Positions 4,638-64,000 are shown, numbered from the stretch's first letter. The stretch: 64,000 nucleotides of DNA from an uncultured Candidatus Binatia bacterium (GCA_965200965.1 OZ241744.1:3328001-3392000), one strand, 5' to 3'. Numbers and translations: made by a program. Notes: generated by a model not told the origin, from the sequence alone.

Positions 4638-4649
4638 TGCGCGCCGGCC

Positions 4650-5105: not shown

Positions 5106-5367
5106 TGTCGTCCCTCCTGCTGCATGGCTGCGCCTGACATAAAATGATCCGGGCCGGGATGCAAGAGGCGTCCCGGCCCTCTTCTCCCGGCCCGCCAAAT
5201 GTGCGAGTGCTGCTGAGAGCAATAGACTTGGTGGTAGACGCCGCTCAGGCCGCCGACCGACGCGGACAGGCGGAACACGGATGGAGAGGCGGCTGGGGGC
5301 GGTCTTTGGGTCCAGGCTGTGGTGTGGCCCGACCCACCGGACCAAGCCGCCTGAGCCGAGAGACGCT

Positions 5368-7386
5368 CTACCTCGCCTGACCGTCCTCATCCTCCTCTTC
5401 CATCAGCATGACCGGGGTCAGAATGCGCCGAGGAATGCCGTCCAGAAAGCGCGACGGCCGGCTGAAAACCATGCCGGTGGCCCGGTCAAAGATGTTGATC
5501 GGATAGCTGATAAACAGGTTCTCCTTGGCGCGGGTGGCCGCCACATACATCAGGCGGCGCTCTTCTTCGAGTTCGTCGTCGTCTTTGTTGTGCAGGCTCG
5601 GAAAACGGCCCTCGACCGCCCAGATGATAAACACCGAGTGCCACTCCAGGCCCTTGGCCGAGTGAATGGTCGAGAGGGTCAGCAGCCCCTCGTCTTCGTC
5701 CTCGGTCGCCAGGATATTATCAACGCTGCTTGTCGGGGGCTCGAGCGCCATGTCGGACAGCATCCGATTCAGGCTGCGGTAGCGTTCGGTGATGATGGCG
5801 AAGTGCTCCAGGTCTTTTTGACGCTTGGGGGCGTCGTCCCGGTGGCGACGTTTCAAGAGCGGCAGGTAATAGCGCACGATGACGTCGAGTTGTTCGGCCG
5901 GTTTCAACTCGTCGGCCCTGGCCTGTTGCAGCGTCTCGGCCAAAGTCTGCAAGGCCGTGGCGACTGTGCCTCGCCCCTTATAGGTGGCCAGACCCTGGAA
6001 TTGGTCCGGGCCGTCAAGCACATGGGCCAGGATCGCCTCGCTGCTCTTGGGCCCTACGCCGTCCAGGAGCAACAGCACGCGGTACCACGAGACCGCGTCT
6101 TGGGGGTTGGCGATGATCCGCAGATGGGCCAACACGTCTTTGATGTGGGTGGTTTCAATAAATTTGAAGCCGCCCCGTTTGACAAACTGGATGTTCCGCT
6201 TGCTGAGTTCGATTTCGAGATCGAACGAATGAAAACTGGAGCGAAACAGGACGGCGATCTCGGGCAGCGGCACCCCGGACTCGCGCAGCTCCAGGATTTT
6301 CTGCCCGACAAAGCGCGACTGGTAGCGTTCGCTCTCGGCCTCAACCAGGACCGGCGCGATGCCGGCCTCGCGGCGGGTAAACAGATTTTTGGTATAGCTC
6401 TCTTTGGCCTGGAGGATGATTTCGTTGGACAGGTCAAGAATCGGCTGGGTGCTGCGGTAGTTCTCTTCCAGTTTGATGACGGTGGTGTCGGGGAAGAGGC
6501 TGGGAAACTCAAAGATGTTGCGCACTGTTGCGCCCCGAAAGCTGTAGATCGACTGGGCGTCATCCCCGACCGCCATTACATTGTCGTGGGAGTGGGCCAG
6601 CAGCCGGACAAGAGCGGCCTGGAGCCGGTTGGTGTCCTGGTACTCATCGACCATGATGTAGTGGAAGGTGCGGGACAGCCGGTCGGCCAGCTCGGGATGG
6701 TCGCGCAGCAGTTCGCGCAAACAGCTCAGCAGGTCGTCGTAGTCCAACAGGCTGCGCTCACGCTTATAGGTCCGGTAATACTCCGCAATCTGGCCCAACT
6801 CGTCCAACTCATTGAACAAGTGCGGGAACTGTTCGTCGAGCACCGCGGCCACCCCACAGGTTTTGTTGGCCGCCAGGCTGAGGATTTCCAGAATCGTCTG
6901 CTTGCGGGGAAAGCGGCGTTCTTTTTTGTCCAGACCCAGGCGGCTGCGGATCAGGTTAATCACGTCCTCGGCGTCGCTGCGGTCCAGAATAGTGAAGGCG
7001 TGAGCAACCCCCAGGAGATGGGCGTAGCGGCGTAAAATCGTATTGGCAAAGGAGTGAAACGTGCCGCCGGTGACCCGGTCGCAGCGACTTCCCAGGAGCG
7101 CCTCAACCCGGCGCAGCATCTCTTCGGCCGCCCGCCGGGTAAAGGTCAGCAGCAGGATGGAAGCCGGGTCAATGCCCTCCTCAACCATGCGGGCGACCCG
7201 GAAAACGAGCGTGCGGGTCTTGCCGCTGCCGGCTCCGGCCAGGACCAGCAGCGGACCCCGGTGGGTGACGGCGGCCTTGTACTGGGAGGGGTTGAGTTCC
7301 TCCTGATAGTTGATCAGGAAGCGCCCGGCCCGGTCGTCAGACTCTGGACGCAGCTTGTATGCTGCAGGTCGCGTCTGTTCACTCAC
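5368..7386 (-). CDS. UvrD/PcrA/Rep-family ATP-dependent DNA helicase
   Basis: AGAGSGKT, LTFTRRAA, VDEYQDTN, VGDDAQSIYSFRGA, LEENYRST, STIHSAKGLEW, EERRLMYVAATRAK. Confidence 0.95.
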   Translation of the reverse strand: MSEQTRPAAYKLRPESDDRAGRFLINYQEELNPSQYKAAVTHRGPLLVLAGAGSGKTRTLVFRVARMVEEGIDPASILLLTFTRRAAEEMLRRVEALLGSRCDRVTGGTFHSFANTILRRYAHLLGVAHAFTILDRSDAEDVINLIRSRLGLDKKERRFPRKQTILEILSLAANKTCGVAAVLDEQFPHLFNELDELGQIAEYYRTYKRERSLLDYDDLLSCLRELLRDHPELADRLSRTFHYIMVDEYQDTNRLQAALVRLLAHSHDNVMAVGDDAQSIYSFRGATVRNIFEFPSLFPDTTVIKLEENYRSTQPILDLSNEIILQAKESYTKNLFTRREAGIAPVLVEAESERYQSRFVGQKILELRESGVPLPEIAVLFRSSFHSFDLEIELSKRNIQFVKRGGFKFIETTHIKDVLAHLRIIANPQDAVSWYRVLLLLDGVGPKSSEAILAHVLDGPDQFQGLATYKGRGTVATALQTLAETLQQARADELKPAEQLDVIVRYYLPLLKRRHRDDAPKRQKDLEHFAIITERYRSLNRMLSDMALEPPTSSVDNILATEDEDEGLLTLSTIHSAKGLEWHSVFIIWAVEGRFPSLHNKDDDELEEERRLMYVAATRAKENLFISYPINIFDRATGMVFSRPSRFLDGIPRRILTPVMLMEEEDEDGQAR

Positions 7387-7518
7387 CGCTCCGCTCCATT
7401 CACTCGGTCTCTGGCCACAGCCGCCCCAGCATAGCGGAAAAGCCGCCGGCCGTCAGCGTGGCCGGCACGAGACGCTTTGCGCTGACAAGCGCGTTCGGGT
7501 CTGCTATGTACACTGCCG

Positions 7519-48449: not shown

Positions 48450-50131
48450 CAGGCAAGCTCCTGGGGAAAGTAGGTGATGACGCTGCGCAGGGGGTTGGGT
48501 GCGGCCTGACCCAGCCCGCAGATCGAGGCGTCGGCCATCACTTGGGCCAAGTCTTCAAGCCGGCCGATGTCCCAGCGGTCCTGCTCCATGAGGCCGGCCG
48601 CTTTTGCCGTCCCGAGCCGGCACGGCGTACACTTGCCGCACGATTCGTGGGCAAAGAAGCGCATGGCGTTGAGAGCCGCGGCCCGGGCGCTGTCTTTGTC
48701 CGACAGGACGATAATGGCGGCCGAGCCGATGAAACAGCCGTGGGGCTGGAGGGTGTCGAAGTCGAGCGGCTCGTCGGCCAGCGTGGCCGGCAGGATGCCA
48801 CCCGAGGCCCCGCCTGGAAAATAGCCGTACAACTCGTGGCTGGGCAACATACCGCCGCAGTATTCGTCAATCAGCTCACGCAGGGTGATGCCGGCCGGAG
48901 CGATGTGGACGCCGGGCCGGCTGACCCGCCCGCTGACCGAAAAGGAGCGCAGCCCGGTACGCCCGTTGCGACCCTGGCCGGCAAACCAGGCCGGGCCTTT
49001 TTCGACAATCTCGCGTACCCAGAACAGGGTCTCAAAATTATGCTCCAGGGTCGGGCGGCCAAACAGTCCGACCTCGGCCACATACGGCGGTCGCAGCCGC
49101 GGCATCCCACGCTTGCCCTCAACAGACTCGATCATGGCCGACTCTTCGCCGCAGATGTAGGCCCCGGCTCCCCGGCGGACATGGAAGCGGGGCAGGGGCG
49201 TGGGCGGGTCGGCCCGCAGCTCGACGATACTGTCCTTGATGACCTGGATGCAGGCCGGGTATTCGTCGCGGATATAGATGTAGACCTCGCTGATGCTGAC
49301 CGCCCAGCAGGCGATCAGCAGCCCTTCCAGAAAGCGGTGCGGGTCGCGCTCCATATAATAGCGGTCTTTGAATGTGCCCGGCTCGCCCTCGTCGATATTG
49401 ACCGCCAGCAGCCGGGGGGCGGGGGAGTCGCGGACAATGCGCCATTTGCGGCCGGTCGGAAAACCCGCCCCGCCCAGGCCGCGCAACCCGGCCTCGTCCA
49501 GGGCCGTGATGATCGACTCGGCCGTGCGCTCGCCGGCCACGCAGGCCCGCAGGAGCCGATACCCGCCGCCTTTTGTATACGCTGGGCAGTCTATGACGGT
49601 GGTCGGGGCCGGGCAGGCTGTGGCCCGCCGGCTGACAGCTTCCTGCACCTTGTCCGGGGTGGCCTGAGCGATGGGATTCTGGCCGACAATGACCGCCGGG
49701 GCGACCTCACAGCGGCCAACGCATGGCACGCGCTGCACCCGGATGCTCCCGCCGAGACGGTCGGGCAGAGCCGCCAGCAGCGCCGGCGCGCCGGCCAGCT
49801 CACAACTGAGCGAGTCGCACACCCGGACGGTCAGGGCCGGCGGCGGCGCTTCGTGCTCTTTGACCACATCAAAATGATGGTAAAAGCTGGCCACCTCGTA
49901 GACCTCAACCGGGGCCAGCCGCATCTCCGCGGCCAGGGCGACGAGATGGGCGGCTGACAGGTGGCCATAGCGGTCCTGAATGGTATGCAGGTGCTCAATC
50001 AGCAGATCGCGCCGGCGGGGTGCGTCACCGAGCAGACTTTGGATCTCGGCCAAAGCCTGGGGACTGACCGACCGGCCCTTGGCTCTGGAGCGTCTGCGGC
50101 GGCTGTCTTGTTCCATGCTGGTGTCCGACAT
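48449..50131 (-). CDS. Formate dehydrogenase diaphorase subunit (NuoE+NuoF fusion, Fdh1B-like)
   Basis: VCDSLSC...CVGRC 2Fe-2S, GLRGLGGAGFP, DEGEPGTFKD, YICGEE, ESCGKCTPCR. Confidence 0.93.
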   Translation of the reverse strand: MSDTSMEQDSRRRRSRAKGRSVSPQALAEIQSLLGDAPRRRDLLIEHLHTIQDRYGHLSAAHLVALAAEMRLAPVEVYEVASFYHHFDVVKEHEAPPPALTVRVCDSLSCELAGAPALLAALPDRLGGSIRVQRVPCVGRCEVAPAVIVGQNPIAQATPDKVQEAVSRRATACPAPTTVIDCPAYTKGGGYRLLRACVAGERTAESIITALDEAGLRGLGGAGFPTGRKWRIVRDSPAPRLLAVNIDEGEPGTFKDRYYMERDPHRFLEGLLIACWAVSISEVYIYIRDEYPACIQVIKDSIVELRADPPTPLPRFHVRRGAGAYICGEESAMIESVEGKRGMPRLRPPYVAEVGLFGRPTLEHNFETLFWVREIVEKGPAWFAGQGRNGRTGLRSFSVSGRVSRPGVHIAPAGITLRELIDEYCGGMLPSHELYGYFPGGASGGILPATLADEPLDFDTLQPHGCFIGSAAIIVLSDKDSARAAALNAMRFFAHESCGKCTPCRLGTAKAAGLMEQDRWDIGRLEDLAQVMADASICGLGQAAPNPLRSVITYFPQELA

Positions 50132-50411
50132 GTTGAATTGTTTCGGCACTATACCCATTTGGGCCCGGGTCAACAAGGCAGATAGGGCATGACCTGTCCA
50201 CAACTCCAGAATTGCGAGACCACACAAAAGACCTCTGTCACGGACGGCTATTAAGCCTCTTCTTACAAATCAAGGAAAGAGATGAAGAGGGATTAGGGCA
50301 CCATGATTGGTCGTTTGCTTGAAAGTCGCCCTGCCAGATGGTTCGATTCGTTGTTCACAGGTGGCTGCCATGCTAACCTGCCTCAGCAACAATGTGGGGG
50401 AGGAGAAAGGT

Positions 50412-51076
50412 ATGGAATATTCCGCGCTTCCGCCAATTTTCACGATCGAGCAAGCCGCGGGCTACTTGCAGGTGAGCGTTGGGAAATTGCGTGCCGAACT
50501 GGAGAGTGGCCGCATTCCAGGGCTGAAAATCGCGGGTCAATGGCGCATCGAGCGGCGGGCGCTTGACCATTGGCCGAGTCTCCTCTGCATGATTTTGCAC
50601 TGCACGCCCGCTTGGCGAATGTCGGAACCAACTTGGCGGATACATATATCAGCGCATGGAAGATTTACCAAACAGAGGAGATGCCCAACTATTCCGGCGT
50701 CGTCCACGAGATACGAGACATCCTGACCCTGCTGTTGGATACAATAGCTCCGAACGGAGATGTTATGGCTGAAACTGGCTTCAAACTTGAAGCCGGACAT
50801 AACAATCCTACTCGCCGGCAACGTGTCCGCTACGCGGTTCGTAGACTGTACGACCCCGAACATGCAAAAGAGATCGCGAGCGACTTCGATCTTCTCGAAA
50901 TCCTGTGTGAACGCTTGGCTCAAGCCGCTACAGGTGCCTATCGTCGTGCATCCGATCTGGCTCATAATTCGACCCCGCGGGAGAGAGCGTATCGGGTGCT
51001 CAAGCAATGGGAAGGTCTTGTCGCCCAGCTTCTTCCAGAACGCCAGGACGCGCTTCACGCATCTGGTAGCAGCGGT
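50412..51076 (+). pseudogene. Excisionase-type HTH plus HEPN-like helical domain, frameshifted near 50570
   Basis: FTIEQAAGYLQVS...GRIPGLKIAGQWRI (HTH_17 pattern), then in another frame EIRDIL..LL..IAP...PTRRQRVRY...RASDLAH. Confidence 0.55.
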
Positions 51077-51229
51077 ATGAAGAGGCGAAAGAGCGACGCT
51101 TACCCCTCTGCGAGTTTGCACGAACTGAGCAGACGGGGCTTTCTCAAAGGAGTGGGGACATCTGTAGCTGGGTCGGTAGGCGTGCTGACTGCCCTGGCGG
51201 TTCAAGCCGCAAAAAGAAAGGATCGGCCT

Positions 51230-52171
51230 ATGACACGCTTTGGGATACAGATCGAACCCCAGTTTGGCTTTTCGTATCAGGAGGTCGCCGGCCTGGCCCA
51301 AGACGCCGAGCGACTGGGCTTTGACGGTCTGTGGGTGTCTGACCACCTGTTCTGGGACGCGCAGTCCGAACAGCGCAACTGTCTGGACGCCTGGACCCTG
51401 CTGACCGCCCTGGCCCCGGTCACGACTCGCCTGCGCCTCGGCACGCTGGTCAGCTGCAACTCCTACCGCCTGCCCAGCGTGCTGGCCAAGGTGACGGCCA
51501 GTTTTGACCACCTGAGCCAGGGCCGGCTGGAGTTCGGCATTGGTGCCGGCTGGAAGGAGATGGAGTATACGGCCTACGGCATCCCCTTTCCGCGGGTTGG
51601 TGTCCGGCTGGCCCAACTCGAAGAGGCGGTGCAGCTCATGCAACTGCTGTGGACCCGGCCGCGGGCCTCATTTCAGGGCAAATACTACCAGCTTGAGCGG
51701 GCGGTGTGCGCGCCCAAGCCGGTTCAGCAGCCGCTCAAGACCTGGATTGGCGGCATGGGCGAGAAAAAGCTGCTGCGGATTGTGGCCCGCCACGCTAGCG
51801 GCTGGAACGCTATGCCCGGCGTACCGGCCGAGGCCATGCAGAAAAAGCTGGACGCGCTGCGCCGGCACTGCGACGCGCTCGGGCGGGACGTGGCCAGCAT
51901 CGACAAGTCGCTGTTCATCCTGTGCTGCATCGTTGACGATGAGGCCGAACTCAGAACCCACGCGGCCGACCTGGAAAAAACCCTGGGCACGGCCGATATC
52001 ATCCGGGCTGGGCGCAAGATTCGTACCGCCGGTACGCCCGAGCAGGTGGCCGACACGCTGCGCGGCTTTCAGCGCCTCGGCTTTGACTATTTTATCGCCA
52101 TGTTTCCCTACCGGCGGGACGCCGAGATGCTGGAGCGCTTCAGCCGCCAAGTCGTGCCGCTGCTGGCCTAG
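51230..52171 (+). CDS. LLM-class F420-dependent oxidoreductase
   Basis: ATG at 51230 with RBS AAAGGA. GFDGLWVSDH, RLRLGTLV, GRLEFGIGAGW. Confidence 0.9.
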   Translation: MTRFGIQIEPQFGFSYQEVAGLAQDAERLGFDGLWVSDHLFWDAQSEQRNCLDAWTLLTALAPVTTRLRLGTLVSCNSYRLPSVLAKVTASFDHLSQGRLEFGIGAGWKEMEYTAYGIPFPRVGVRLAQLEEAVQLMQLLWTRPRASFQGKYYQLERAVCAPKPVQQPLKTWIGGMGEKKLLRIVARHASGWNAMPGVPAEAMQKKLDALRRHCDALGRDVASIDKSLFILCCIVDDEAELRTHAADLEKTLGTADIIRAGRKIRTAGTPEQVADTLRGFQRLGFDYFIAMFPYRRDAEMLERFSRQVVPLLA

Positions 52172-53602: not shown

Positions 53603-54234
53603 CTAGCGCCGGGGCTGGCCCCCCCGGTGTTTGGGGATCATCTGCCAGCGGCTCAAATTTATGATCCCTTTGACCCCAACCAGCGCCCTGATGATGACCC
53701 CTCGGGCGGCGCGGGCCAGCAGCACATCGTCCCGGGGGCCGGGGGTGATCGCATTCCCCCACCGGTCGGCCCGCAGGGCATGGAAGACGGCAACATCGGG
53801 TCGGATCGGCTGGGCCACTACTACCTGTCCGCCAGGATTGAACGGATTGTCCTGGACGGGCAGATCAGGGCGATAGGTCAGCAGATCGGAGTAGAGCAGA
53901 CCGCGCACAGCGATAAAGGGCACACCCATCGATCCAGCCTGGATCATGCTGTACAACGCCCCTCAAGTACTATCCTTCATGTTGAGCAAGCCCGCCCGCA
54001 CGGCGCGCTGAAAGTTGGGTGCCGGGCCGTAGGGGCCGAGGATTCAGGAGCAGGTTTCGTAGCTGTCCGCGAGTCCGTCGCCGGTCAGGGTTACAAGCCC
54101 AAGGCGGCCGACTTGGCGTTTGCCCGCGAGAAAGCCGTAGGGGCGTTGTTGAGCACGGCCGATGTCATGTCCAGCAGGGTCCCCGGCCGCACCCCGGCGG
54201 CCGCCTCGTCCAGAGACTGAAGTTTGATGCGCAT
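53603..54234 (-). pseudogene. Degraded CoA-transferase subunit A-like gene
   Basis: Pieces MRIKLQSLDEAAAGVRPG..., GPAPNFQRAVRAG..KDST*GALYSMIQAGSMGVPF..., PIRPDVAVFHALRADRWGN; one frameshift and in-frame stops. Confidence 0.7.
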
Positions 54235-54541
54235 GCGAGGCGCACTACAGTAAAAGCCTCGGTCGCTGCAACGGTGAGATCGGAGGCAGGATTCCCCACA
54301 CATTTTGACAGGCCGTCCTTTCCCCTCGCCGGCTTTGCGGTCCGGGCGGGACTCTGCTATGAGGGGCGGGGTCTGTGATGGGGGCCGCTAAGGAGGCTGT
54401 AGCGGCGCGCTCTTCCCTGGGTTGGACAAACCGGACAACGGCGGGCTTGGGAGGTGTGTGGCTGGAGATCAGCTTGCCGGGCAGGGTCGCCGGCCAGCGC
54501 GTATGCGATGCAGTGAATGGATATACGGAGGAGGTGTGATT

Positions 54542-55660
54542 ATGCCATCGGCGATATCTGAACGGGCGTGGGCTGGCAAAAAGTATTGGGTGATATCCGC
54601 GGACTGTCATGTGCTGGAGCCGCCGGACCTGTGGGAGCGTCGGGTTGCGCCCAGGTTTCGTCACCGGCTCCCCCGCATGGAGATGGATGACAGGGGCCGC
54701 AAGACATTGATTGTTGAGGGTCAGCGCCCTACCCGGATTCGGGATTTCAGCCTGGAGGGCGACGACCTGGATCGGGCCAAGGGCGGCGGTTGGGAGGCGG
54801 CCAAGCGCCACGCTGATCTGGACCGGGACGGCATTGATGCGGAGGTCGTCTACCCTAACCGGGGTCTGCTGATGTGGGCCTCGCCCGACCCCGAACACCA
54901 GACCGAGATGTGCCGGGTGTGGAACGACTGGGCGATTGAGGTCTTTCCGCCGGCCCAGAAGCGCTCGCTGCCGGTGGCGGCGATTGCGCCCCAGAATGTG
55001 GAGACTGCGGTCAAGGAGGTTGAGCGGGTGGCCAGGCTCGGCTACCGGGTGGTTTTTCTGCCGGTCCAGGTGGCCGACCAGCCGTATAATCTGCCGCTGT
55101 ACGAGCCGCTGTGGGCGGCGGTGCAGGACGCCGGGCTGCCGGTGAGTTTTCATGTCGGAACAGGCAAGGACCCGCGCACGGCAAGCGGCAACGGCGGGGC
55201 GATCCTGAACTATGTGTGGCACGCGCTGTCCACCGCGATTGAGCCGGTGACGCAGCTGTGCGTGTCGGGCGTATTGCAGCGCTTTCCGGGACTGCGGTTT
55301 GCCACGGTTGAAGCCGGGATCGGCTGGCTGGCATGGACCCTGTGGGTCATGGATGAGGGCTATCAGAAACATCATTTCTGGGTTGCGCCCAAGCTGGAGA
55401 TGCTGCCGAGCGAGTATTTCCGCCGCCAGGGCTATGCTACTTTTCAGGATGACCCGGTCGGGCTGGAGACGCGCAAGTGGATCGGGGTTGAGAACCTGAT
55501 GTGGGGCGATGATTATCCGCACCACGAGGGGACGTGGCCGTGCTCTCGGGAGGTTATTGATCGCACAATGGGCGAGCTGACCGACGAGGAGCGCCGGCAG
55601 GTGTTGGGGCTGACCGCGGCTACGCTGTACGGGTTTGATCTGGACGAGGGACGGGGGTGA
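54542..55660 (+). CDS. Amidohydrolase_2 family protein
   Basis: ISADCHVLEP, DGIDAEVVYP, PVSFHVG, VEAGIGW, MWGDDYPH. Confidence 0.9.
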   Translation: MPSAISERAWAGKKYWVISADCHVLEPPDLWERRVAPRFRHRLPRMEMDDRGRKTLIVEGQRPTRIRDFSLEGDDLDRAKGGGWEAAKRHADLDRDGIDAEVVYPNRGLLMWASPDPEHQTEMCRVWNDWAIEVFPPAQKRSLPVAAIAPQNVETAVKEVERVARLGYRVVFLPVQVADQPYNLPLYEPLWAAVQDAGLPVSFHVGTGKDPRTASGNGGAILNYVWHALSTAIEPVTQLCVSGVLQRFPGLRFATVEAGIGWLAWTLWVMDEGYQKHHFWVAPKLEMLPSEYFRRQGYATFQDDPVGLETRKWIGVENLMWGDDYPHHEGTWPCSREVIDRTMGELTDEERRQVLGLTAATLYGFDLDEGRG

Positions 55661-55662
55661 CG

Positions 55663-55977
55663 ATGGACCACCTGATTGTGGACTGGGGCGAAGCTGAGCT
55701 GGCCGAGGGGCGGCGCAAGCGCTGGATGGGCAGCTGGCTGGTCTCACACGAGGGCGAGGAGGGCGAGTATTTTTATGACGGCCCCGGCGGTCGGCAAACG
55801 CGGCACGCGGTGCCGACCGGGGCGATTGGCGTGCGCCTGCGCTGGTGGCCGAGCGCGGACACGGTGGCCATGAACCTGGAGTTTGGGCCGATGAGTCAGG
55901 TGGCCGACGATTATTTTTTTGAGGACAACGCAGGGCCGGCGGTTACGCTCCGCGCCCACGATCTGATTCGCGGCTGA
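55663..55977 (+). CDS. Hypothetical protein
   Basis: Tightly packed between the amidohydrolase and MFS genes; host-like codons. Confidence 0.7.
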   Translation: MDHLIVDWGEAELAEGRRKRWMGSWLVSHEGEEGEYFYDGPGGRQTRHAVPTGAIGVRLRWWPSADTVAMNLEFGPMSQVADDYFFEDNAGPAVTLRAHDLIRG

Positions 55978-55989
55978 GGGGGGAACCGC

Positions 55990-57243
55990 ATGGCTTGGCC
56001 TGTGCGCTACAAACTCGTCGGTCTGCTGGCCACCGGCAGCATGATTAACTATGCCGACCGGGTGAACATCTCGGTGGCCGCGCCGGTGATGATGGCCGCC
56101 CTCGGCTGGGATGAGGCCCAGTTCGGGCTGATCTTTTCGGCCTTTCTGCTCGGCTACACCCTGCTCCAGATTCCCGGCGGGATTATCGCCGACCGCTGGA
56201 ATACGGTCTGGGTGGTGGCGATTGCGTGCTTTGGCTTCTCGCTGTTTACCGCCCTGACGCCGTTTGGAGCGCTGGCGTTTGGCCTGATGCTGGTCCTGCG
56301 GTTCAGTGTCGGCCTGCTGGAATCGGTCAGCTTTCCGGCCTATGCGGCGCTGAACGCGCGCTGGATTCCGCGCTATGAGTATGGCCGCGCCCAGAACATC
56401 AGCCTGTCGGGTTCGCACATCGGTCAAGCCCTGGCCTATCCGGTGACGACCTGGATTATTGCCACCTTTGCCTGGCCGGCGGTGTTTTATTTTAACGGCC
56501 TGCTGGGCGGGCTGTGGCTGATCGTGTGGCTGGCTTCGGTCACGAACACGCCGGCCGAGCATCCTCGCATTAGCCAGCAGGAGTTGCGGGAAATTGAAGA
56601 CAACCTGGCTCCGCGGCCTCAGACGACGGTCTCCCCGCTGCGTCTGCTCAGAAACCGTCACGTTCTGCTGCTCTCTCTGGCTTATATGTACATGGTGTAC
56701 GGGCTGTGGATGGTGATTCTGTGGTTGCCGACCTATCTGGTCCAGGCCCGTGGCTTTTCGCTGGAGGCAATGGGGGTGCTGGGCATCATTCCGACGGTGG
56801 CGGGTGCCTTGGGCCTCATCTCGGGCGGGACAATTTCGGACGTGTTGCTGCGGCGTGGCTGGAGTCCGCGGGTGGCCCGAGCTCAGGCCCCGGCCTTGTG
56901 CGCGTTTCTGGGCGTACCGAGTATCCTGGCCGCGGCGTTTGTGCCGTGGCCGATGGTGTCGGTCGGCTGTCTGGCCCTGTATATGTATTTTGCCAATCTG
57001 GGCAGCGGCGCGTGCTGGGCAGTGCCGGTCGAGCTGAATCCGAGGCAGATTGGAGCCATATCGGGGGTGATGAACGGGGCCGGCAATTTTGCCGGGATTT
57101 TTGGGCCGATGAGTGCCGGCTTTCTGGTGGCGGCAACGGGCAGCTGGGAGCTGCCGCTGGTGGCCATCGCCGTCATGCTGCTGGTAGCGACCCTGCTCTA
57201 CTATTTCCTGGTTGTGCCCGAGCCGATTGAGCTGTCAGGATGA
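55990..57243 (+). CDS. MFS transporter (anion:cation symporter family)
   Basis: INYADRVNIS, QIPGGIIADRW, about 12 TMs. Confidence 0.92.
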   Translation: MAWPVRYKLVGLLATGSMINYADRVNISVAAPVMMAALGWDEAQFGLIFSAFLLGYTLLQIPGGIIADRWNTVWVVAIACFGFSLFTALTPFGALAFGLMLVLRFSVGLLESVSFPAYAALNARWIPRYEYGRAQNISLSGSHIGQALAYPVTTWIIATFAWPAVFYFNGLLGGLWLIVWLASVTNTPAEHPRISQQELREIEDNLAPRPQTTVSPLRLLRNRHVLLLSLAYMYMVYGLWMVILWLPTYLVQARGFSLEAMGVLGIIPTVAGALGLISGGTISDVLLRRGWSPRVARAQAPALCAFLGVPSILAAAFVPWPMVSVGCLALYMYFANLGSGACWAVPVELNPRQIGAISGVMNGAGNFAGIFGPMSAGFLVAATGSWELPLVAIAVMLLVATLLYYFLVVPEPIELSG

Positions 57244-57527
57244 ATGATCCTGACCCGTACAAAGACTTCACCGAGCGCCTGAAGCTGCTGAGCAGCAAGC
57301 GCCCGGATTTGATCACAACCACCCTTGGGAATATCTTCACCATGCGTCTCATTGGAAACAAGACGCATGGTGATATGGCGGAGATAGCAATTGCCGAGTT
57401 TATCAATCAATACATGTACGACTTCCGCTCAATTCACGTCGGGAAAGACCTGTACCGCGCCAAGTCAAAATCGATTGTTTTCTCACGCCCTTGTAGCCTC
57501 GGAGGCTGGCCACACAGCGGCGCTTGA
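57240..57527 (+). pseudogene. Truncated putative type II restriction endonuclease (N-terminal fragment)
   Basis: GNKTHGDMAEIAIAEF...HVGKDLYRAK, then an abrupt unrelated tail; lies directly upstream of an MTase; lower GC. Confidence 0.45.
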
Positions 57528-57577: not shown

Positions 57578-58711
57578 ATGGCACACACACTTCCGCTCTT
57601 TGACGACCTCGTCCTTGACGCCCCATCTACGGAGGGGATCAAGTACGCTGGGTCTAAGCTGAAGCTCCTTCCGCACCTGCTGCAACTGGTCAAGAAAGTC
57701 GGAGCGGAGACGGTTCTGGACGGGTTTTCGGGAACAAGCAGGGTATCGCAGGCGCTTGCCAAATGTGGCTATCGAGTCGTGTGTAATGACATTGCTGTCT
57801 GGTCTGAAGTTTTTGGCACCTGTTATCTGCTTAACACCAAAGAACCGGAGGCGTATCAGCCGCTCATTGATCATCTCAACGCCGTCCCGCCGGTTGACGG
57901 GTGGTTCACCGAACACTATGGCGGGAACGCTAACGGAGGCTGTGCGATACAGCGCGATGGCCGTAAGACCCCTTGGCAGCTACACAATACCCGCAAACTG
58001 GACGCGATCCGGCAGGAAATTGAAGCGCTCGCTCTTGACTCTGTAGATAAAGCGGTGGCCCTGAGCAGCCTGATTTTGGCGCTTGATCGCGTAGATAGTA
58101 CCCTGGGACACTTTGTCTCGTATCTCAAAGACTGGTCTCCTCGCTCCTATAAGAAGCTGATACTCCAGGTCCCGAATGTCTTTGCGTCGGCGCACGAACA
58201 CCGGGTGTACCGGAGCGACATATTTGACCTGCTCCCTGGCGTTCCTGTCGATCTGGCCTATTTCGATCCTCCGTATGGATCAAACAATGAGAAAATGCCG
58301 CCGTCACGGGTCCGCTACGCCTCCTACTACCATATTTGGACAAGCGTCTGTCTCTTCGATAAGCCAGACCTCTTTGGTAAGGCTAATCGTCGCACGGATA
58401 CGTCGGATACAGTAGCGGCATCGGTGTTTGAGGAGTACCGACGAAACGCCGCAGGGCGTTTCATTGCCGTCGAGGCAATTGAGAGACTTCTCAAGGCGAC
58501 CCGGACACGCTGGATTATCCTGTCGTACAGCTCTGGGGGGCGGGCGACAGCTGAAGAACTGAACGAAGTTCTGCGCCGTAATGGGCTCCTCCGAGAGGTT
58601 GTTGAGATCGGCTACAGGAAGAACGTTATGTCTGGCATGAAGTGGACCAATGAATGGTTAAGAGATGCGGAGCAAGCAAATCGAGAGTTCTTGTTCCTGC
58701 TCGAAAAGTGA
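57578..58711 (+). CDS. DNA adenine (N6) methyltransferase
   Basis: IKYAGSK (motif X), DGFSGT (motif I), DPPY (motif IV), ILSYS. Confidence 0.92.
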   Translation: MAHTLPLFDDLVLDAPSTEGIKYAGSKLKLLPHLLQLVKKVGAETVLDGFSGTSRVSQALAKCGYRVVCNDIAVWSEVFGTCYLLNTKEPEAYQPLIDHLNAVPPVDGWFTEHYGGNANGGCAIQRDGRKTPWQLHNTRKLDAIRQEIEALALDSVDKAVALSSLILALDRVDSTLGHFVSYLKDWSPRSYKKLILQVPNVFASAHEHRVYRSDIFDLLPGVPVDLAYFDPPYGSNNEKMPPSRVRYASYYHIWTSVCLFDKPDLFGKANRRTDTSDTVAASVFEEYRRNAAGRFIAVEAIERLLKATRTRWIILSYSSGGRATAEELNEVLRRNGLLREVVEIGYRKNVMSGMKWTNEWLRDAEQANREFLFLLEK

Positions 58712-59010
58712 TGAATAACCCCTCCTCACTTACGCCTCTTTCCACACCGCCGAGACCAGCTCGGTGTCAAGATAGGCCGTGCCTTCGGTGACTTTGCCGC
58801 TGGCGAGCGCATGACCCGGCAATAGCTGTTGTGGTAGGATTTGCCGGAGTTCAATCTGTCCGCCGGCGACCCCAATGGAACTCTCAGACCACGTTTGCGC
58901 CACCGCATCTCCCTGTGTGCACTCCCCGTGGCTTAGCAAGGCCGCCTGCCGGAGTCAAGGAAAGCGCGGCCTGAGCCGGGGCAATTCTGCTCGAGAGCGG
59001 AAAATCCGAG

Positions 59011-59967
59011 TCACATCAAGCAGAGCGCGATAGCGCTGCCGATAGCCAGCCCAATAATCACTGAAAAGACCAACGCTTTTACAATTGTCCGCCATCTCCA
59101 GTTGAAAAAAGTAAAAACAGACGGCCGCCATCTCCAGTTGAAAAAAGTGAAAACAGAGAGAATCAGGGCGAACAGAGAAAAAACAAGAGAAAAAACAGGT
59201 GTGAAAGCGTCCAATGTTCGGATGTCAGGCAGGCTAGTTTTGATGCCTGCCATATAGGGGAGCCCGATAGCTGCCATGAGGATCGCTAGTAGGCCGACTA
59301 CCAGCGAGGTAAACAGGTTAATTTTTTGGTATACTTCGTCCAGCTTGTCTTTTGTTTCACCAGGCCCGCTGCGGAAATCGTCAATTCCGAAGTCTTCTAT
59401 GACGAGACGTTTGGGGGGCCGTCGGTATCGCTCCCATTCCTCATCTCCCTTGCTGATATCAAAGTAAGTAGTCTTGACGAAATCGAGAACGGCGATAGCC
59501 TCGCCCTTTTCTATTGATACTTTTTTATTCGACAGATTGTAAATTGGACAAAACAGATGCCCTACATAGCCCGGGTCAACCTGCGGTCCGCCGACCCAAA
59601 CCAATCCTTTGTATGCCAAGGCAACTCGAATGTTCCAACGCCCGATGAGGAACCTGGGCAGATTGAGTGTCTCGGCAGTTTGTATGACCGCTACCTCAAA
59701 CGCGGGGATACTGAGCGAATTGTTTGGCCAGCAGTCGCTGAGATGATAAGGCTTACCACCTACCACTACCTCATCGCCCACAGTCAATTTATAGGAAGCG
59801 GGCTTAAGATTCTTCTTATTGAAGGGGTCAATTAGCTGACCCTGCCTTACATAGAACTCTATCTCGTCGCTGAGGAGGACACCAGTCTTCTCCGGGTGGG
59901 AGTCCTTTTCCAAGGGCTTGATCTCGGCTAGCCGATCGCATTCCTCCTGTTGCCTCTTTGTACTCAT
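59011..59967 (-). CDS. dCTP deaminase/dUTPase-fold protein with C-terminal transmembrane helices
   Basis: VLLSDEI, IDPF...LKPASYKLTVG, T.ETLNLP, VDPGYVG, YNLS, followed by about 3 hydrophobic helices. Confidence 0.85.
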   Translation of the reverse strand: MSTKRQQEECDRLAEIKPLEKDSHPEKTGVLLSDEIEFYVRQGQLIDPFNKKNLKPASYKLTVGDEVVVGGKPYHLSDCWPNNSLSIPAFEVAVIQTAETLNLPRFLIGRWNIRVALAYKGLVWVGGPQVDPGYVGHLFCPIYNLSNKKVSIEKGEAIAVLDFVKTTYFDISKGDEEWERYRRPPKRLVIEDFGIDDFRSGPGETKDKLDEVYQKINLFTSLVVGLLAILMAAIGLPYMAGIKTSLPDIRTLDAFTPVFSLVFSLFALILSVFTFFNWRWRPSVFTFFNWRWRTIVKALVFSVIIGLAIGSAIALCLM

Positions 59968-59971
59968 TGCC

Positions 59972-61039
59972 TTAACCACGCCTGCGATGGCTTGAATTGC
60001 TCTGAGGGATGTTGCGCGAAGCTATGTCGCTATGGCCCGGCCCATAGCCAAGGAAATGGACCGGCATCCCGATCTGTTCTTCAACCTTCCGGAGAAACCG
60101 CTCTACGGTAAATGAATGCCGGCCGTTTTTCCCGAAAGCTGGATCGAGATAGTCGAGATGATTGAGGACAATCTCCGTTGGAGCGTTCACCTCTATAGCC
60201 GATCGTACAATATCGGGATCGAACTTTGCGACCCGGCGGACCTTTCCTGTAACGGTTGTATACTCTCGAACGCATTGACCGCCCCGGCCTTTCGTAATTT
60301 CGTCCCATGTCGTTTCGTTCGGGAGAGGGCCGGAAGACCCGGCAACACGAATAGGAAATGCGCGAATGACGAGGACGATCTGATCCACATCCAGAGGACT
60401 CAGGCCCGCCTCGGAGACGAAAGCCGCCGCGCTGGTATCGCGGCTGGTCGTGTACGGATAGTCTGGGGCATGGAGCACCGACAAGCCAAAGCCTTGGGTT
60501 CCCTCTATGACAATACGGGCACCTTTTTTGAGGGCCTCACGCATGAGTGCTGTCGTGTCGCCGAGAAACGCCGTCAGTCGCCGGTCGTCCGCTGCCAAAA
60601 TACTTCGTCCCGAGCGACGGGCGCGTTCTATGACCGCCGCACCTGTCCCGCTTCCCGTCGAACCTATCCGGCTCTGCAAGTCCCAGTCATGTTCTGTCTG
60701 CTTGTGGGCCTCGGAAATGACCACGGCACGCGGACTAATTCTCAGCCGACTCGCTTCCAGAGGGACATCTTCACGGACACGCTCAATTTCTTTGAGCAGG
60801 CGCGGGACGTCAATGTACGAGCCTGGACCGATGATAAGAGTTGGGTCCGGCAACAGACAGGCCGTTGGGAGGTGACGAAACACATGCCGCTTGTTTCTCT
60901 CATCTACGACGGTATGTCCGGAATTGGAGCCGCCAACCCGCACAACGACGGAGGCCTTTTGGGTTTTGGTAAGCCAGTGCGCGACTTTTCCCTTGCCCTC
61001 GGAGCCGAACTGCCCACCCACAACCACTGAAACCGGCAT
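59972..61039 (-). CDS. Short adenylosuccinate synthetase paralog, PurZ0-like
   Basis: GGQFGSEGKG, GGSNSGHT, GSTGSG, EGTQGFGL, YPYTTSRD, FPIRVAG, TTVTGKVRRV, NHLD. Confidence 0.9.
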   Translation of the reverse strand: MPVSVVVGGQFGSEGKGKVAHWLTKTQKASVVVRVGGSNSGHTVVDERNKRHVFRHLPTACLLPDPTLIIGPGSYIDVPRLLKEIERVREDVPLEASRLRISPRAVVISEAHKQTEHDWDLQSRIGSTGSGTGAAVIERARRSGRSILAADDRRLTAFLGDTTALMREALKKGARIVIEGTQGFGLSVLHAPDYPYTTSRDTSAAAFVSEAGLSPLDVDQIVLVIRAFPIRVAGSSGPLPNETTWDEITKGRGGQCVREYTTVTGKVRRVAKFDPDIVRSAIEVNAPTEIVLNHLDYLDPAFGKNGRHSFTVERFLRKVEEQIGMPVHFLGYGPGHSDIASRNIPQSNSSHRRRG

Positions 61040-61056
61040 CAGTTTCCCCTATTCCG

Positions 61057-62550
61057 TTACAAATCCGTTCGGAGAGATAGCGTCCCGGAATTGGCTTGCC
61101 CCGTGGTTGAGGAGACGCCATTTCCGAGTCTGGGGATAATCAGGGGTTCCTCGTCCGCTGTTCCCAGGGCTTCGGACAGGCCAGCCAGATAAAACGTGCC
61201 CACAAGGGCCGATGTGATGGCATCGAGTTCGTCATGCGTCACGTTGTGTGTCTCGTAATCACCCCGTATGCCAAATTCCCACAAGCCCGCCTTCAGCCAC
61301 TCCGGGCCGGCACCCTTGCGGGGGATACGCATGATATCTTGCGCCGCGCCGGGATAGCTCTCAATCACCTGAACATCATGCTCACGGAGTGTGCGGGCGA
61401 GTCGGATCCCTCTTGCCGTGAGTTTCTGCATGCTCGGGATAAGACAGGGATAGACATTGATACCGCGTCGCCTGAGCTCGCGTTCGCATTCGCGCGTGAT
61501 TCCAAATTCCGTCCGACCGGGGTCGTCATCCCCAACGGCAGCACGGCCAGCCGGAAGACATAAAGGGGAGTCGATAGAAACGAGACGTGGACAGGCCCGT
61601 ATCGTTTTTTCGATCAATGCGTCGTCCGAGAACACTGGCGCTACCTGCGCTTGCGATCCATCCAGAAGGCACCAACCGCTGGCCCGTTCCTCGGAGCCGG
61701 TAAGATCGATTCCAACGATTCGAAGTCTTGAGAGAGGACCGGGGCTGAACAGATCAGAGAACCGGAAGCGTCCCTGCATCAACTCACCAGATGGCATGGG
61801 AAGGCTCGGCAGCGTCTGCCAGTCCTGCGGTGCCGACCAGTCTCGAAAACATACATTCTTGGAAAACAACTCCAGTTGCGTGCCAAGTCGAGAGACCACC
61901 TCGTCAAATATCGCTCCCATGGCTGCGATGTCGGCCCGGTTGTAGCGAATGAGCTTTTGGAGGGCGTCTTGATCGCCACGAACATACCGATGCCAAAGCA
62001 CGACGGCCGCAGCGCCGTCCAGGCTGGTCAAATCGTTTCGAAAGCCGATACCCAACGCTTTTTCGATGGCCTTTTGCCCACCTGTCAAACCGACGCGGCG
62101 GCAAAGATACATCAGGTCAATATGCGGCTCGGGCAGAACGATCTCGGGAAATTCCCGTGTAATGAACTTGGCGTCGAAGCGGATCCCGTTGAAGGTAACC
62201 AGAGCCTTTGCGCGCGCGGCGTCCTCTTGTAACTGTCTCGGAGCTTGCCCCTTGATGATCGTTTTCGCATGACCTCCAAAAGACCATCCGATGACGGTAA
62301 TCTCGTCATAATAATGGCTGAGGCCGGTCGTCTCAATATCGAGAAAAAGAATGTCCTCGGGAGAATCAACACAGGTAGCGAACTGGCGTCGCAATTTTTG
62401 CCGGATGGTACGAGGCGTAACTGAGCGCTCTTTCCTGCCTGTTCTCCTTGGTTCCTTTGCCTGATCGGGCGGATTGCCGACGCCGGGAAGGCTGAGGGCG
62501 GCCTGTCCGCCGGTACCCTCAATGGAACTCTCAGGCCACGTTTGCGCCAC
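61057..62550 (-). CDS. YprB/RNase_H_2 DEDD exonuclease fused to DUF429 (RNase H-fold) domain
   Basis: FLDIETTGL, TFNGIRFD, HIDL, YNRADI; then GIDLTGS, SIDSPL, RECEREL, IESYPGA, HDELDAI. Confidence 0.85.
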   Translation of the reverse strand: MAQTWPESSIEGTGGQAALSLPGVGNPPDQAKEPRRTGRKERSVTPRTIRQKLRRQFATCVDSPEDILFLDIETTGLSHYYDEITVIGWSFGGHAKTIIKGQAPRQLQEDAARAKALVTFNGIRFDAKFITREFPEIVLPEPHIDLMYLCRRVGLTGGQKAIEKALGIGFRNDLTSLDGAAAVVLWHRYVRGDQDALQKLIRYNRADIAAMGAIFDEVVSRLGTQLELFSKNVCFRDWSAPQDWQTLPSLPMPSGELMQGRFRFSDLFSPGPLSRLRIVGIDLTGSEERASGWCLLDGSQAQVAPVFSDDALIEKTIRACPRLVSIDSPLCLPAGRAAVGDDDPGRTEFGITRECERELRRRGINVYPCLIPSMQKLTARGIRLARTLREHDVQVIESYPGAAQDIMRIPRKGAGPEWLKAGLWEFGIRGDYETHNVTHDELDAITSALVGTFYLAGLSEALGTADEEPLIIPRLGNGVSSTTGQANSGTLSLRTDL

Positions 62551-62707
62551 GCTGCTTTTTCCTCCCTGTCTGCGGCTCCCCGTAGTCTAGCAAAGCTGTC
62601 AAGGAAAAGGAACGCGGCCCGGGTGCCGGGGAAGCTCGGAATTGACAAAACTGTGAGGTTCAGCGTAGCCTTCTTGCGCCTACGCCAACTGCACTGAGGA
62701 GGGGGAT

Positions 62708-64000
62708 ATGCAGCCACAGCAATTGATTCGGCTTTCCGCGGCGTTTCTCGTGTTTGGATTCATGCTCGGAGTCCTGCCCGGTCAGCGCGCCAGCGCTCAA
62801 GGCTTGACCGAGATGCAGCAGGACTCTGGGCAGTGGGTCTTGCCCGGGAAGGATTATGCCCTGACCCGTCATAGCCCGCTGACCCAGATCACCAGGGATA
62901 ACGTCGCAAATCTCAAGGCGGCCTGGACCTTCTCGACCGGAGTCCTGCGTGGCCATGAGGGCGCTCCGCTGGTCGTCGGCAGCATGATGTATGTGGTCAC
63001 GCCTTTTCCCAACATTGTCTATGCCCTGGACCTGAGCAAGCCGGGACCGGCGATGCAATGGAAATATGCGCCTGAGCAGGACGAGGCGGCTATTCCGGTT
63101 GCCTGCTGTGACACGGTCAACCGTGGGGCTGCCTACGCCGAGGGCAAAATCTTCTTCAATCAGCTCGACGCCCATACGGTTGCCCTGGATGCCGAGACCG
63201 GCGAAGAGGTGTGGAAGGTCAAACAGGGCGATATCGGCCAGGGCCAGACGATCACGATGGCACCCCTGGTAATTCGGGACAAGGTCCTGACCGGCATCAG
63301 CGGCGGGGAATTTGGCGTGCGCGGCTTTGTCACCGCCAATGATATCAACACCGGCGAGCAGGTGTGGCGGGCCTACAGCACCGGGCCTGATTCCGAAGTG
63401 CTCATCGGCGCAGGTTTTTCGCCGACCTACGCCTCACACCAGGGCAAAGACCTGGGGGTGTCAACCTGGAAAGGCGAGGAGTGGAAGCGCGGCGGCGGCA
63501 CGACCTGGGGCTGGTACAGCTACGACCCGGAGTTGGACCTGTTCTATTATGGCACGGGTAACCCGGGTGCCTGGAATCCCGATCAACGGCCGGGCGAGAA
63601 CAAGTGGTCAATGACGCTGTTTGCCCGCAACCCTGACACCGGCATGGCCAAATGGGCGTATCAAATGACCCCCCACGACGCCTGGGACTATGACGGCGTC
63701 AATGAGAGTATCCTGATTGATCTGCCGGGCACGAACGGCAGCGCTGCCCGGAAGGTCTTGATCCATTTTGACCGCAACGGCTTTGCCTATGTGCTTGACC
63801 GCGCCACCGGCCGGCTGCTCAGCGCCAAGCCCTTCGGACATGTGAACTGGGCCAGTGGCGTTGATCTGGAGACCGGGCTGCCGATTGAAAACCCGGACAA
63901 GCGCACCCGGCAGGGGGAGAATGTGACCGATATCTGCCCGGCGGCGATGGGTGCCAAGGATCAGCAGCCAGCCGCGTATTCGCCCAAGACGGGCCTGCTG
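62708..64000 (+). CDS. xoxF: Lanthanide-dependent methanol dehydrogenase XoxF (3' end runs off the window)
   Basis: Not in the ORF track. ATG at 62708 with RBS GAGGAGG. Signal peptide, TGVLRGHEG, VACCDTVNRG, GGGTTWGW, TPHDAWDYDGVNE (the D-x-D extra Asp). Confidence 0.92.
   Translation, partial: MQPQQLIRLSAAFLVFGFMLGVLPGQRASAQGLTEMQQDSGQWVLPGKDYALTRHSPLTQITRDNVANLKAAWTFSTGVLRGHEGAPLVVGSMMYVVTPFPNIVYALDLSKPGPAMQWKYAPEQDEAAIPVACCDTVNRGAAYAEGKIFFNQLDAHTVALDAETGEEVWKVKQGDIGQGQTITMAPLVIRDKVLTGISGGEFGVRGFVTANDINTGEQVWRAYSTGPDSEVLIGAGFSPTYASHQGKDLGVSTWKGEEWKRGGGTTWGWYSYDPELDLFYYGTGNPGAWNPDQRPGENKWSMTLFARNPDTGMAKWAYQMTPHDAWDYDGVNESILIDLPGTNGSAARKVLIHFDRNGFAYVLDRATGRLLSAKPFGHVNWASGVDLETGLPIENPDKRTRQGENVTDICPAAMGAKDQQPAAYSPKTGLL

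Follow-up and report, generated by a model that had tools for sequence, protein, structure and literature searches.

A window of 64,000 nucleotides from the genome of an uncultured Candidatus Binatia bacterium (GCA_965200965.1 OZ241744.1:3328001-3392000) was found to contain an operon of three genes. These encode a two-domain nuclease, a synthetase resembling PurZ, the phage N6-succino-2-amino-2'-deoxyadenylate synthase with which the making of 2-aminoadenine (Z) begins, and a membrane protein with the fold of dCTP deaminase (Dcd). The operon and its relatives form a cassette that is likely to be a new nucleotide-based anti-phage system. An earlier note on this DNA had described three tightly packed, co-oriented genes with a GC content below that of the flanks, and both points hold. 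Three open reading frames (ORFs) follow each other on the minus strand (Table 1), with 17 bp between the nuclease and synthetase genes. At the next junction there is either an 8-bp overlap, if the membrane protein is read from its GTG, or a 4-bp gap, if it is read from an ATG at 59967. The ATG is the likely start and fits a database copy of 318 amino acids (aa). Over the trio (59000-62750) the GC content is 0.48-0.59. It is 0.61-0.68 at 54000-57250 and 0.61-0.62 beyond 62500, the genome as a whole averaging 0.615.

Table 1. Coordinates of the operon genes, of features in and around them, and of the genes that replace the membrane-protein gene in related loci (numbered with L; coordinates without a locus number refer to the window)
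Feature	Coordinates	Strand	Remarks
Two-domain nuclease gene	61057-62550	minus	ORF, 497 aa
PurZ-like synthetase gene	59972-61039	minus	ORF, 355 aa
Dcd-fold membrane-protein gene	59011-59979	minus	ORF, 322 aa from GTG start
Tandem duplication in membrane-protein gene	59089-59157		period 36 nt, 33 nt, 97%
Direct repeat, upstream copy	62503-62550		48 nt; spans first codons of nuclease ORF
Direct repeat, downstream copy	58856-58903		48 nt; about 110 bp beyond the end of the membrane-protein gene
Type II N6-adenine DNA methyltransferase gene, outside the operon	57578-58711	plus	PADLOC MTase_II, E 6.7e-168; Pfam MethyltransfD12
Truncated type II restriction endonuclease gene, outside the operon	57240-57527	plus	PADLOC REase_II, E 5.8e-38
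AAA+ replacement gene	L091:5935-7653		after synthetase
AAA+ replacement gene	L093:5898-8408		after synthetase
AAA+ replacement gene	L155:3424-5541		after synthetase
AAA+ replacement gene	L157:2280-4340		after synthetase
AAA+ replacement gene	L160:1720-3723		after synthetase

The synthetase, the membrane protein and the nuclease

The middle gene encodes a short homologue of the adenylosuccinate synthetase PurA (Pfam Adenylsucc_synt, E 3e-59). Its scores lie under the cut-offs of the NCBIfam archaeal PurA model PRK04293 (281.7 bits, cut-off 368), the NCBIfam PurZ model NF038379 (261.8 bits, curated cut-off 300) and TIGR00184 (224.2 bits, cut-off 395.55); in PHROGs the protein falls in phrog_1211 (E 1.1e-84). 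A canonical purA, 30% identical to the synthetase, is present elsewhere in the genome, and the operon synthetase is therefore a second, non-housekeeping copy. Two archaeal hosts of related cassettes (G002 and G003) also have a PurA of their own, scoring 560 and 530 bits.

Analysis of conserved motifs revealed that the P-loop of the window copy, GGQFGSEGKG, has Ser where PurA has Asp13. The corresponding sequences are GGQFGSEAKG in PurZ0 (7VF6), LQFGSTGKG in PurZ (6FM1) and GGQWGDEGKG in Pyrococcus horikoshii PurA. Across 59 cassette copies this position is Ser in 45, Gly in 14 and Asp in none. A published paper gives the frequency of Asp13 in PurA as 99%, reports Ser throughout 147 phage PurZ, and places four archaeal sequences, bearing either Ser or Gly, near the base of the PurZ group (PMC12884076). 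Altogether four features are common to the cassette copies and PurZ/PurZ0 and set them apart from PurA: the Ser, a PIRV motif ((P/T)TRV in PurA), a two-residue insert, and TTVT (GTVT in PurA). The Asp of the nucleotide-base motif is kept in the cassette copies, in PurA and in the sampled PurZ0, and is lost in PurZ. Seen against PurA structures, its retention hints at GTP as the phosphate donor.

A tree of 69 rows (quick search under LG+C20, without five copies that are split or short) placed the 59 cassette copies and six phage PurZ/PurZ0 in one clade. This clade has a support of 99 in the Shimodaira-Hasegawa-like approximate likelihood ratio test (SH-aLRT) and excludes two archaeal and two long PurA; the two archaeal PurA belong to cassette-bearing genomes. 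The window synthetase clusters with other Binatia and proteobacterial cassette copies, outside the branch of sampled phage PurZ0/PurZ, and its best phage PurZ matches are 31-39% identical. In the free tree the phage enzymes stand, on long branches, beside kinase-fusion forms from Dehalococcoidia (SH-aLRT 92), which suggests that phage PurZ is nested within the cassette clade. Forcing the cassette copies to be monophyletic costs 0.14 log-likelihood units (approximately unbiased test, p 0.51), and nesting is thus not supported over a sister placement. Overall, the shared residues and the joint clade point to a common origin of the cassette synthetase and phage PurZ/PurZ0, for which we claim no direction of transfer. 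The enzyme had been called PurZ0-like; PurZ-like is the part of that description that stands, since the protein scores under the PurZ cut-off and lies outside the PurZ0 branch.

The third gene encodes a protein matching Pfam DCD (E 3.7e-12). Residues 20-170 or thereabouts were modelled as a Dcd/dUTPase beta-barrel by AlphaFold2 (AF2), with a predicted local distance difference test (pLDDT) score above 90 over the barrel and of 80 overall. Foldseek retrieved a Thermococcus dUTPase as the best match (8y1w, E 2.6e-14) and E. coli Dcd at about 1e-10. The barrel is followed by a linker and three hydrophobic segments, predicted to be membrane helices, at approximately 226-244, 262-280 and 303-321. 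A tandem duplication repeats FTFFNWRWR between helices 2 and 3 and is also present in L001 and P0003. The Protein Atlas has only 'hypothetical protein' clusters for this protein.

The earlier note had considered the deaminase dead, and the alignments agree. Compared with two Dcd from the same genus and one phage Dcd, the canonical RSSxxR and TLE are replaced by RVALAY and FCP. Among 120 homologues, Tyr stands at the Dcd Arg position in each of the 119 matched and Pro at the Glu position in each of the 115 matched, and the score of the window protein in the Dcd model TIGR02274 is 51.4 bits (cut-off 92.8). The residues of dUTPase have fared similarly: motif II has lost its Ser, RLAQ of motif IV has become AIAV with loss of the Arg and Gln, motif V is absent, and the Asp of motif I is Glu in the family and Lys in the window copy; motif III (VDPGY) is kept. 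In contrast, all five dUTPase motifs survive in the Dut-like protein that Gordonia phage Ghobes encodes near PurZ0. Across 25 diverse homologues there is no variation in the sugar-binding motif VDPGY or at some 55 further positions. Loss of the catalytic residues together with such strong conservation indicates that the fold is kept under strong constraint, and not for deaminase or dUTPase chemistry. As to canonical Dcd, no TIGR02274 match at E <= 1e-20 was found in the window genome; six of 12 relatives searched have one, four of them among seven genomes of the same genus.

The nuclease matches Pfam RNase_H_2 (E 9.8e-32) and reaches 17.8 bits with DUF429, under the cut-off of 23. It had been described as a dual nuclease, and two nuclease folds with two invariant sets of acidic residues were indeed recognized (AF2 model, pLDDT 78). 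Residues ~62-231 correspond to a DEDDy 3'-5' exonuclease, in which D71, E73, N121, D126, H143, D145, Y203 and D207 are invariant in 24 aligned nucleases. Residues ~275-470 correspond to a RuvC-like (DUF429-type) RNase H-fold domain, in which D282, D327, E397 and D443 are invariant in the same 24. Structural comparison of residues 62-231 with VIA-align gave Z 13-14 for PolB/PolA proofreading exonuclease domains, including DpoZ of phage phiVC8 (Z 13.2), Z 13.0 for the diDNase 9f7g and Z 10.9 for the CBASS exonuclease Cap18; NrnC is also alike. Residues 276-470 matched RuvC 4ld0 (Z 12.5, root-mean-square deviation 2.8, 139 residues aligned). The diDNase and NrnC enzymes convert dinucleotides to mononucleotides. 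In PADLOC the nuclease has only weak matches, to DEDDh (3.9e-6) and PDC-S44 (1e-4). The catalytic acidic residues are kept in both domains; together with the predicted folds, these invariant residues bear out the term dual nuclease at the level of sequence conservation and predicted fold.

Conservation, variation and mobility of the cassette

A profile search with the membrane protein in representative genomes of 185,579 species yielded 67 loci. Their hosts include Binatia, Acidobacteriota, Alpha- and Gammaproteobacteria, Dehalococcoidia, Clostridia, Campylobacterales, Saccharibacteria and several archaeal groups. Searching with tblastn detected the synthetase gene at 63 of these loci; 57 have it on the same strand and 49 at a distance of no more than 400 bp, and all four loci lacking it end at contig edges. 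Nuclease domains were detected in the same way in 47-48 of the 67. Co-occurrence of the three genes had been put forward earlier as a check on the idea of a single system, and the counts show that the trio forms one cassette across phyla. At 50% identity the membrane-protein family comprises 207 clusters (E <= 1e-30).

The gene order is nuclease, synthetase, Dcd-fold protein, with a P-loop kinase (Pfam AAA_18) optionally preceding the synthetase and a deoxynucleoside kinase optionally closing the cassette. The P-loop kinase occurs as a separate gene, fused to the C-terminus of the nuclease or fused to the N-terminus of the synthetase. The deoxynucleoside kinase is found in 12 loci, and at least 44 of 63 loci have one kinase or the other. 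The accessory kinase of the relatives resembles the kinase-like part of the anti-phage dCTP deaminase (PADLOC E 4e-15; NCBIfam NF041025, E 2.1e-8). A further family, designated F3, is encoded in 15 of the 67 loci, often in those without the nuclease (for example L004:7227-8015 and L058:6892-7680). Its members are about 250 aa long and carry an N-terminal QNRYVGDxGDFGKY followed later by DPDNG and YHH; no match to F3 was found in Pfam, NCBIfam or PADLOC, and the Protein Atlas has only 'hypothetical protein' clusters for it. Regulators of the XRE type lie upstream in 13-17 loci, and DUF7002 is present in three. Two archaeal loci have further metabolic genes. In L019 (Methanophagales) an adenylosuccinate lyase gene (4422-5798) directly follows the cassette and is the only clear purB found in that genome; in the haloarchaeal L035 an HD dGTPase-like gene and an adenylate kinase gene flank the cassette (1607-2884 and 6838-7470).

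A scan of metagenomes anchored on the synthetase gave at least 534 relatives, the best 80 of which were examined; 56 of these have at least 1 kb of sequence on both sides. The membrane protein is present in 46 of the 56, 42 identified by tblastn and four more by blastp. Five of the others contain the synthetase alone, one ends too early, and four (L091, L093, L155 and L157) have a different protein in this position. With the addition of L160, such a replacement was observed in five of the 80 loci (Table 1). The replacing proteins, of at most 836 aa, are soluble and have a Cdc48/VCP-like AAA+ domain and an N-domain of ~440-550 aa of no known type; the genes of L091 and L155 end at contig ends. 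The proteins of L093 and L155 are 50% identical. Neither hydrophobic helices nor a nucleotide-hydrolase fold could be detected in them, and a hidden Dcd fold was rejected by hhalign (probability <1%). The presence of an AAA+ protein in place of the Dcd-fold gene suggests that the output module of the cassette is swappable.

Comparison with close relatives demonstrated that the cassette moves. L001 is syntenic with the window at ~90% nucleotide identity, including the restriction-modification (R-M) pair. In L002 the trio (81% nucleotide identity) occupies a different site: its flanks match the window genome at 512480-515427 and 515515-518362, and this site is empty here. The L002 insert also holds a HEPN_Swt1 gene. 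The membrane protein was found in only three of 301 sampled genomes of the phylum and in two of the 259 of high quality. Ratios of nonsynonymous to synonymous substitution rates (dN/dS) against L001 and L002 are 0.19-0.56. The cassette is thus horizontally mobile, conserved and patchily distributed across bacteria and archaea. Copies in L004, L043, L023, L030, L039 and L033 were observed among the origin-proximal housekeeping genes mnmG/gidB/trmE, gyrB/gyrA, dnaN and rnpA; that of L030 sits between gyrA and gyrB.

Genomic neighbourhood

Strong PADLOC matches within two genes of the cassette were found at eight loci by raw count; the scan covered 150 of the 222 neighbouring ORFs, the remainder being mostly already known housekeeping genes. 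The neighbours are R-M genes (L001), PDC-M30A (L021), a PLD-helicase with a DUF1156 methyltransferase (L031), Cas1 (L033 and L067), HamB (L044), capP (L049) and HmaC (L051), in addition to the R-M genes of the window itself. HsdM adjoins L093, and transposases are present in L008, L012, L021 and L136. Directly upstream of the cassette, a capP-like M78 peptidase is encoded in L049 (758-2143, PADLOC E 2.1e-19) and a capH-like helix-turn-helix protein in L012 (2108-2527, E 7.9e-11), which suggests, from similarity, control of the CapH/CapP type for these two copies. For an association with defence islands, another check named in advance, the signal is only moderate: the eight loci stand beside many housekeeping flanks.

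In the window the operon adjoins genes of a type II R-M system, as the earlier note had stated. The methyltransferase gene lies in the same low-GC island as the trio. The endonuclease is a stump of 95 aa covering only positions 6-77 of the 281 of the REase_II profile. At the corresponding position L001 has 507 bp more, and its endonuclease is 279 aa long. Relative to L001 the endonuclease gene has thus been cut short by a ~507-bp deletion; the methylase, itself intact, is now an orphan. Further out lie genes for formate-dehydrogenase-like and Nuo51-like proteins, a luciferase-like monooxygenase, an MscS channel, an amidohydrolase, a major facilitator superfamily transporter and a pyrroloquinoline quinone dehydrogenase. 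No phage structural, DNA polymerase, dATPase, DatZ or MazZ genes were seen in 45.7-64 kb, in line with the earlier note. No tRNA gene that might mark an integration site was seen in 40-64 kb, and shuffled sequence contains promoter-like and terminator-like sites at least as often.

The direct repeat reported to bracket the trio was located as well. Its two copies are 90% identical and are the only ones in the 3.62-Mb genome. A small ORF at 58730-58939 on the minus strand reads AQTWSESSIGVAGGQ and resembles the N-terminus of the nuclease. In L001 the repeat is 65 nt long (86%) and extends over the ribosome site and GTG start of the nuclease gene as well as its first codons. We read the downstream copy as a stray duplicate of the operon's 5' end, with the nuclease gene's ribosome site and initial codons. 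An insertion scar was considered and is unsupported, because the repeat is missing from L002, which carries the cassette at another site.

Elsewhere in the window, an ORF at 50570-52171 has 120 N-terminal residues matching Pfam pP_pnuc_1, a predicted pPIWI-associated nuclease (E 3.5e-11), followed by a luciferase-like monooxygenase. It falls in a low-GC patch (50000-51250, GC 0.53-0.56), and its N-terminus may be a fragment of another defence gene.

Proposed mechanism and competing explanations

A role of the cassette in conflict is supported by its patchy spread and changes of site, its foreign composition, XRE and capP-like regulators, the shuffling of parts, the exchange of the output gene, the similarity of the accessory kinase and the defence neighbours; we consider it probable that the cassette is a conflict system. 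A more specific proposal, which we advance tentatively, is that the mobile operon is an anti-phage abortive-infection system using a base-modified deoxypurine nucleotide as an internal signal. During infection, breakdown of DNA by the phage or by the exonuclease and RuvC-like nuclease of the operon would raise the level of deoxynucleoside monophosphates (dNMPs). Addition of aspartate to dGMP by the PurZ-like enzyme would yield N6-succino-2-amino-dAMP, which host PurB would possibly convert to dZMP. Kinases, encoded in most relatives, would phosphorylate the product; for the window copy, having none, host or phage kinases would have to act. The Dcd fold, a deoxynucleoside triphosphate (dNTP)-binding fold, would then bind the product and switch the membrane helices, and with the membrane damaged the infected cell would stop. 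In the alternative form of the cassette an AAA+ motor would provide the output instead of the helices.

A number of observations weigh against this proposal. The cassettes of the window, L001 and L002 have no kinase. The N-terminal 45 residues of the nuclease are poorly conserved, and the helix-hairpin-helix-like IPGIG motif of its relatives is degenerate in the window copy. At Lys64 of the window membrane protein (codon 59788-59790) matched homologues have Glu in 104 of 108, Lys in two and Gln in two, and L001 has Glu. With these three peculiarities the window copy may work differently or be weakened. Flanking genes are often housekeeping ones (gyrA/B, dnaN, mnmG, rnpA), and the defence-neighbour signal is only moderate. 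PADLOC-DB v2.0.0 (2023) has no model for the synthetase or the Dcd-fold protein, so that, as suspected, the trio matches no named system there. No confirmed relative of the membrane protein was found in the 2.9 million contigs of IMG/VR. Among plasmids only distant stand-alone look-alikes were detected, the best being a lone hypothetical gene on a Priestia megaterium plasmid with no synthetase nearby. The evidence for AAA+ replacement comes from five loci of the best 80, and AAA+ proteins that do not resemble the Dcd fold may have a different ligand. Since the known partners of PurZ are all dNTP-removing, the Dcd fold could be an enzyme of altered chemistry and not a sensor. Finally, inference underlies the proposed substrate and product as well as the ligand and the effect on the membrane.

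The main rival explanation is poisoning or depletion of the nucleotide pool, which we regard as unlikely. Together with host PurB and kinases, the operon would produce dZTP or deplete dGMP/dGTP. Incorporated Z would then poison phage replication, or a lack of G would starve it, and the Dcd-fold protein would act as a regulator or as a modified dNTP-handling enzyme, not as a pore-forming effector. The PurZ-derived residues of the synthetase fit this explanation, as do the kinases in the majority of loci, the lyase gene following the L019 operon and the HD dGTPase-like and adenylate kinase genes at L035. In the published texts available, host enzymes complete dZTP synthesis for the phage, the Z-cluster of S-2L put Z into the DNA of E. 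coli and was toxic (PMC8342488), and the partners of PurZ are dNTP-removing enzymes (PMC12884076, PMC8342488). Against it, the Dcd fold lacks residues that are kept by the phage Dut-like protein near PurZ0, the membrane anchor is left unexplained, the output gene can be replaced by one for an AAA+ protein in which no nucleotide-hydrolase fold was detected, and PurB is adjacent in one of 67 loci only.

Alternatively, the cassette could be an accessory module for deoxynucleotide salvage or interconversion, handling for example DNA breakdown products at the membrane, with no part in conflict with phages. All of its parts (exonuclease, kinases, synthetase, dNTP-binding fold) are nucleotide-metabolism folds, the flanks are often housekeeping genes and the core genes have no PADLOC model. 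However, the cassette occurs in ~1% of the genomes of the phylum, its location differs between close relatives, its composition marks it as foreign, XRE and capP-like regulators are encoded upstream, its parts are fused and swapped, the dNTP-binding fold is without known catalytic residues, and the genome has its own purA. We therefore find this explanation improbable. A Z-genome prophage decayed to a remnant, or a Z-cluster of phage origin left behind in the chromosome, might account for the assignment to phrog_1211 and for the resemblance of the exonuclease to polymerase proofreading domains including DpoZ, but is very improbable, given the IMG/VR result, the finding of only canonical dcd genes (23-28% identical to the membrane protein) in the 50,697 phage records of INPHARED, the missing polymerase, DatZ, MazZ and structural genes, the distance of the best phage PurZ matches, and a gene order kept under purifying selection in 60-odd cellular loci.

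The signalling proposal can be compared with known systems. Pycsar and CBASS are cyclic-nucleotide systems with membrane effectors, and the cassette has an analogous predicted layout, in which a small-molecule generator is followed by a ligand-binding domain fused to membrane helices. Also as in these systems, the output module is exchanged between related cassettes while the generator is kept, and CapH/CapP-like regulators occur at some loci; the exonuclease fold matches the CBASS-associated Cap18. Unlike CBASS and Pycsar, the cassette has no cyclase or CD-NTase, and its predicted signal is a base-modified deoxynucleotide instead of a cyclic nucleotide. Anti-phage enzymes that deplete dNTPs (PADLOC 'dCTPase', dGTPase) similarly act on deoxynucleotides, and the kinase of the cassette relatives matches a part of one of them. 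They are single-protein zinc deaminases or HD hydrolases, whereas the Dcd fold of the cassette differs from a zinc deaminase and is without catalytic residues, and the window copy lacks the kinase.

The Z-clusters of phages consist of PurZ, MazZ and DatZ (S-2L, phiVC8) or of PurZ0 and DutZ with or without DmtZ (actinophages), with DpoZ. The cassette synthetase shares with their enzymes Ser13, PIRV, the two-residue insert, TTVT and a clade apart from housekeeping PurA; like PurZ0 with DutZ, it is paired with a protein of the dUTPase superfamily, and the exonuclease resembles polymerase proofreading domains. The cassette differs in being cellular and in having no polymerase, DatZ or MazZ, its dUTPase-superfamily partner is membrane-anchored and has lost the catalytic motifs, and its synthetase, unlike PurZ, keeps the base-motif Asp and scores under the PurZ cut-off.

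The closest parallel in principle is Kongming, in which, according to the available text, a base-altering enzyme (the adenosine deaminase KomA) and phage kinases produce dITP, to which an effector complex with a pyrophosphatase-derived subunit responds (10.1101/2024.12.20.629578, PMC13454610). As a working analogy only, the cassette would likewise combine a purine base altered on a deoxynucleotide, kinases and a response to a non-canonical dNTP, and its kinase-less form in the window could depend on host or phage kinases in the same manner. The parts are not homologous: Kongming comprises KomA, KomB (a pyrophosphatase for non-canonical purine NTPs) and the SIR2 protein KomC, whereas Pfam detected no deaminase, Ham1 or SIR2 domain in the window cassette. 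Moreover, aspartate would be added instead of an amino group being removed, the predicted output is a membrane or AAA+ protein and not NAD+ depletion, and most relatives have kinases of their own. Adenylosuccinate synthetase is also included in predicted PUA-like immune operons; these are tied to PUA-like sensors with Calcineurin or DrHyd effectors, and the part of the text available mentions no dUTPase, RNase H or deoxynucleoside kinase (bioRxiv 10.64898/2026.01.15.699771). No description of the cassette was found in the searchable literature, a scope that leaves outside subscription journals and preprint supplements.

A broader hypothesis would be that cells make dSMP or dZ nucleotides as an immune messenger or poison, that phage PurZ was captured from a host cassette, and that Z chemistry is a weapon on both sides; at present we regard this as doubtful. 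The enzymes of the cassette could serve in making Z-containing nucleotides, and the question is directly testable with three to five genes. In the paper cited above, PurZ chemistry is reported only from phages with 2-aminoadenine in place of adenine, apart from the four archaeal sequences (PMC12884076). A mobile cellular operon built around a PurZ-type enzyme would bring this chemistry into bacteria and archaea, and the cassette would be a source or a sister lineage for phage PurZ. If the defence reading is true, the cassette would represent a second kind of immunity based on base-modified deoxynucleotides, after Kongming, as well as a novel membrane-effector family derived from an inactivated dNTP-enzyme fold.

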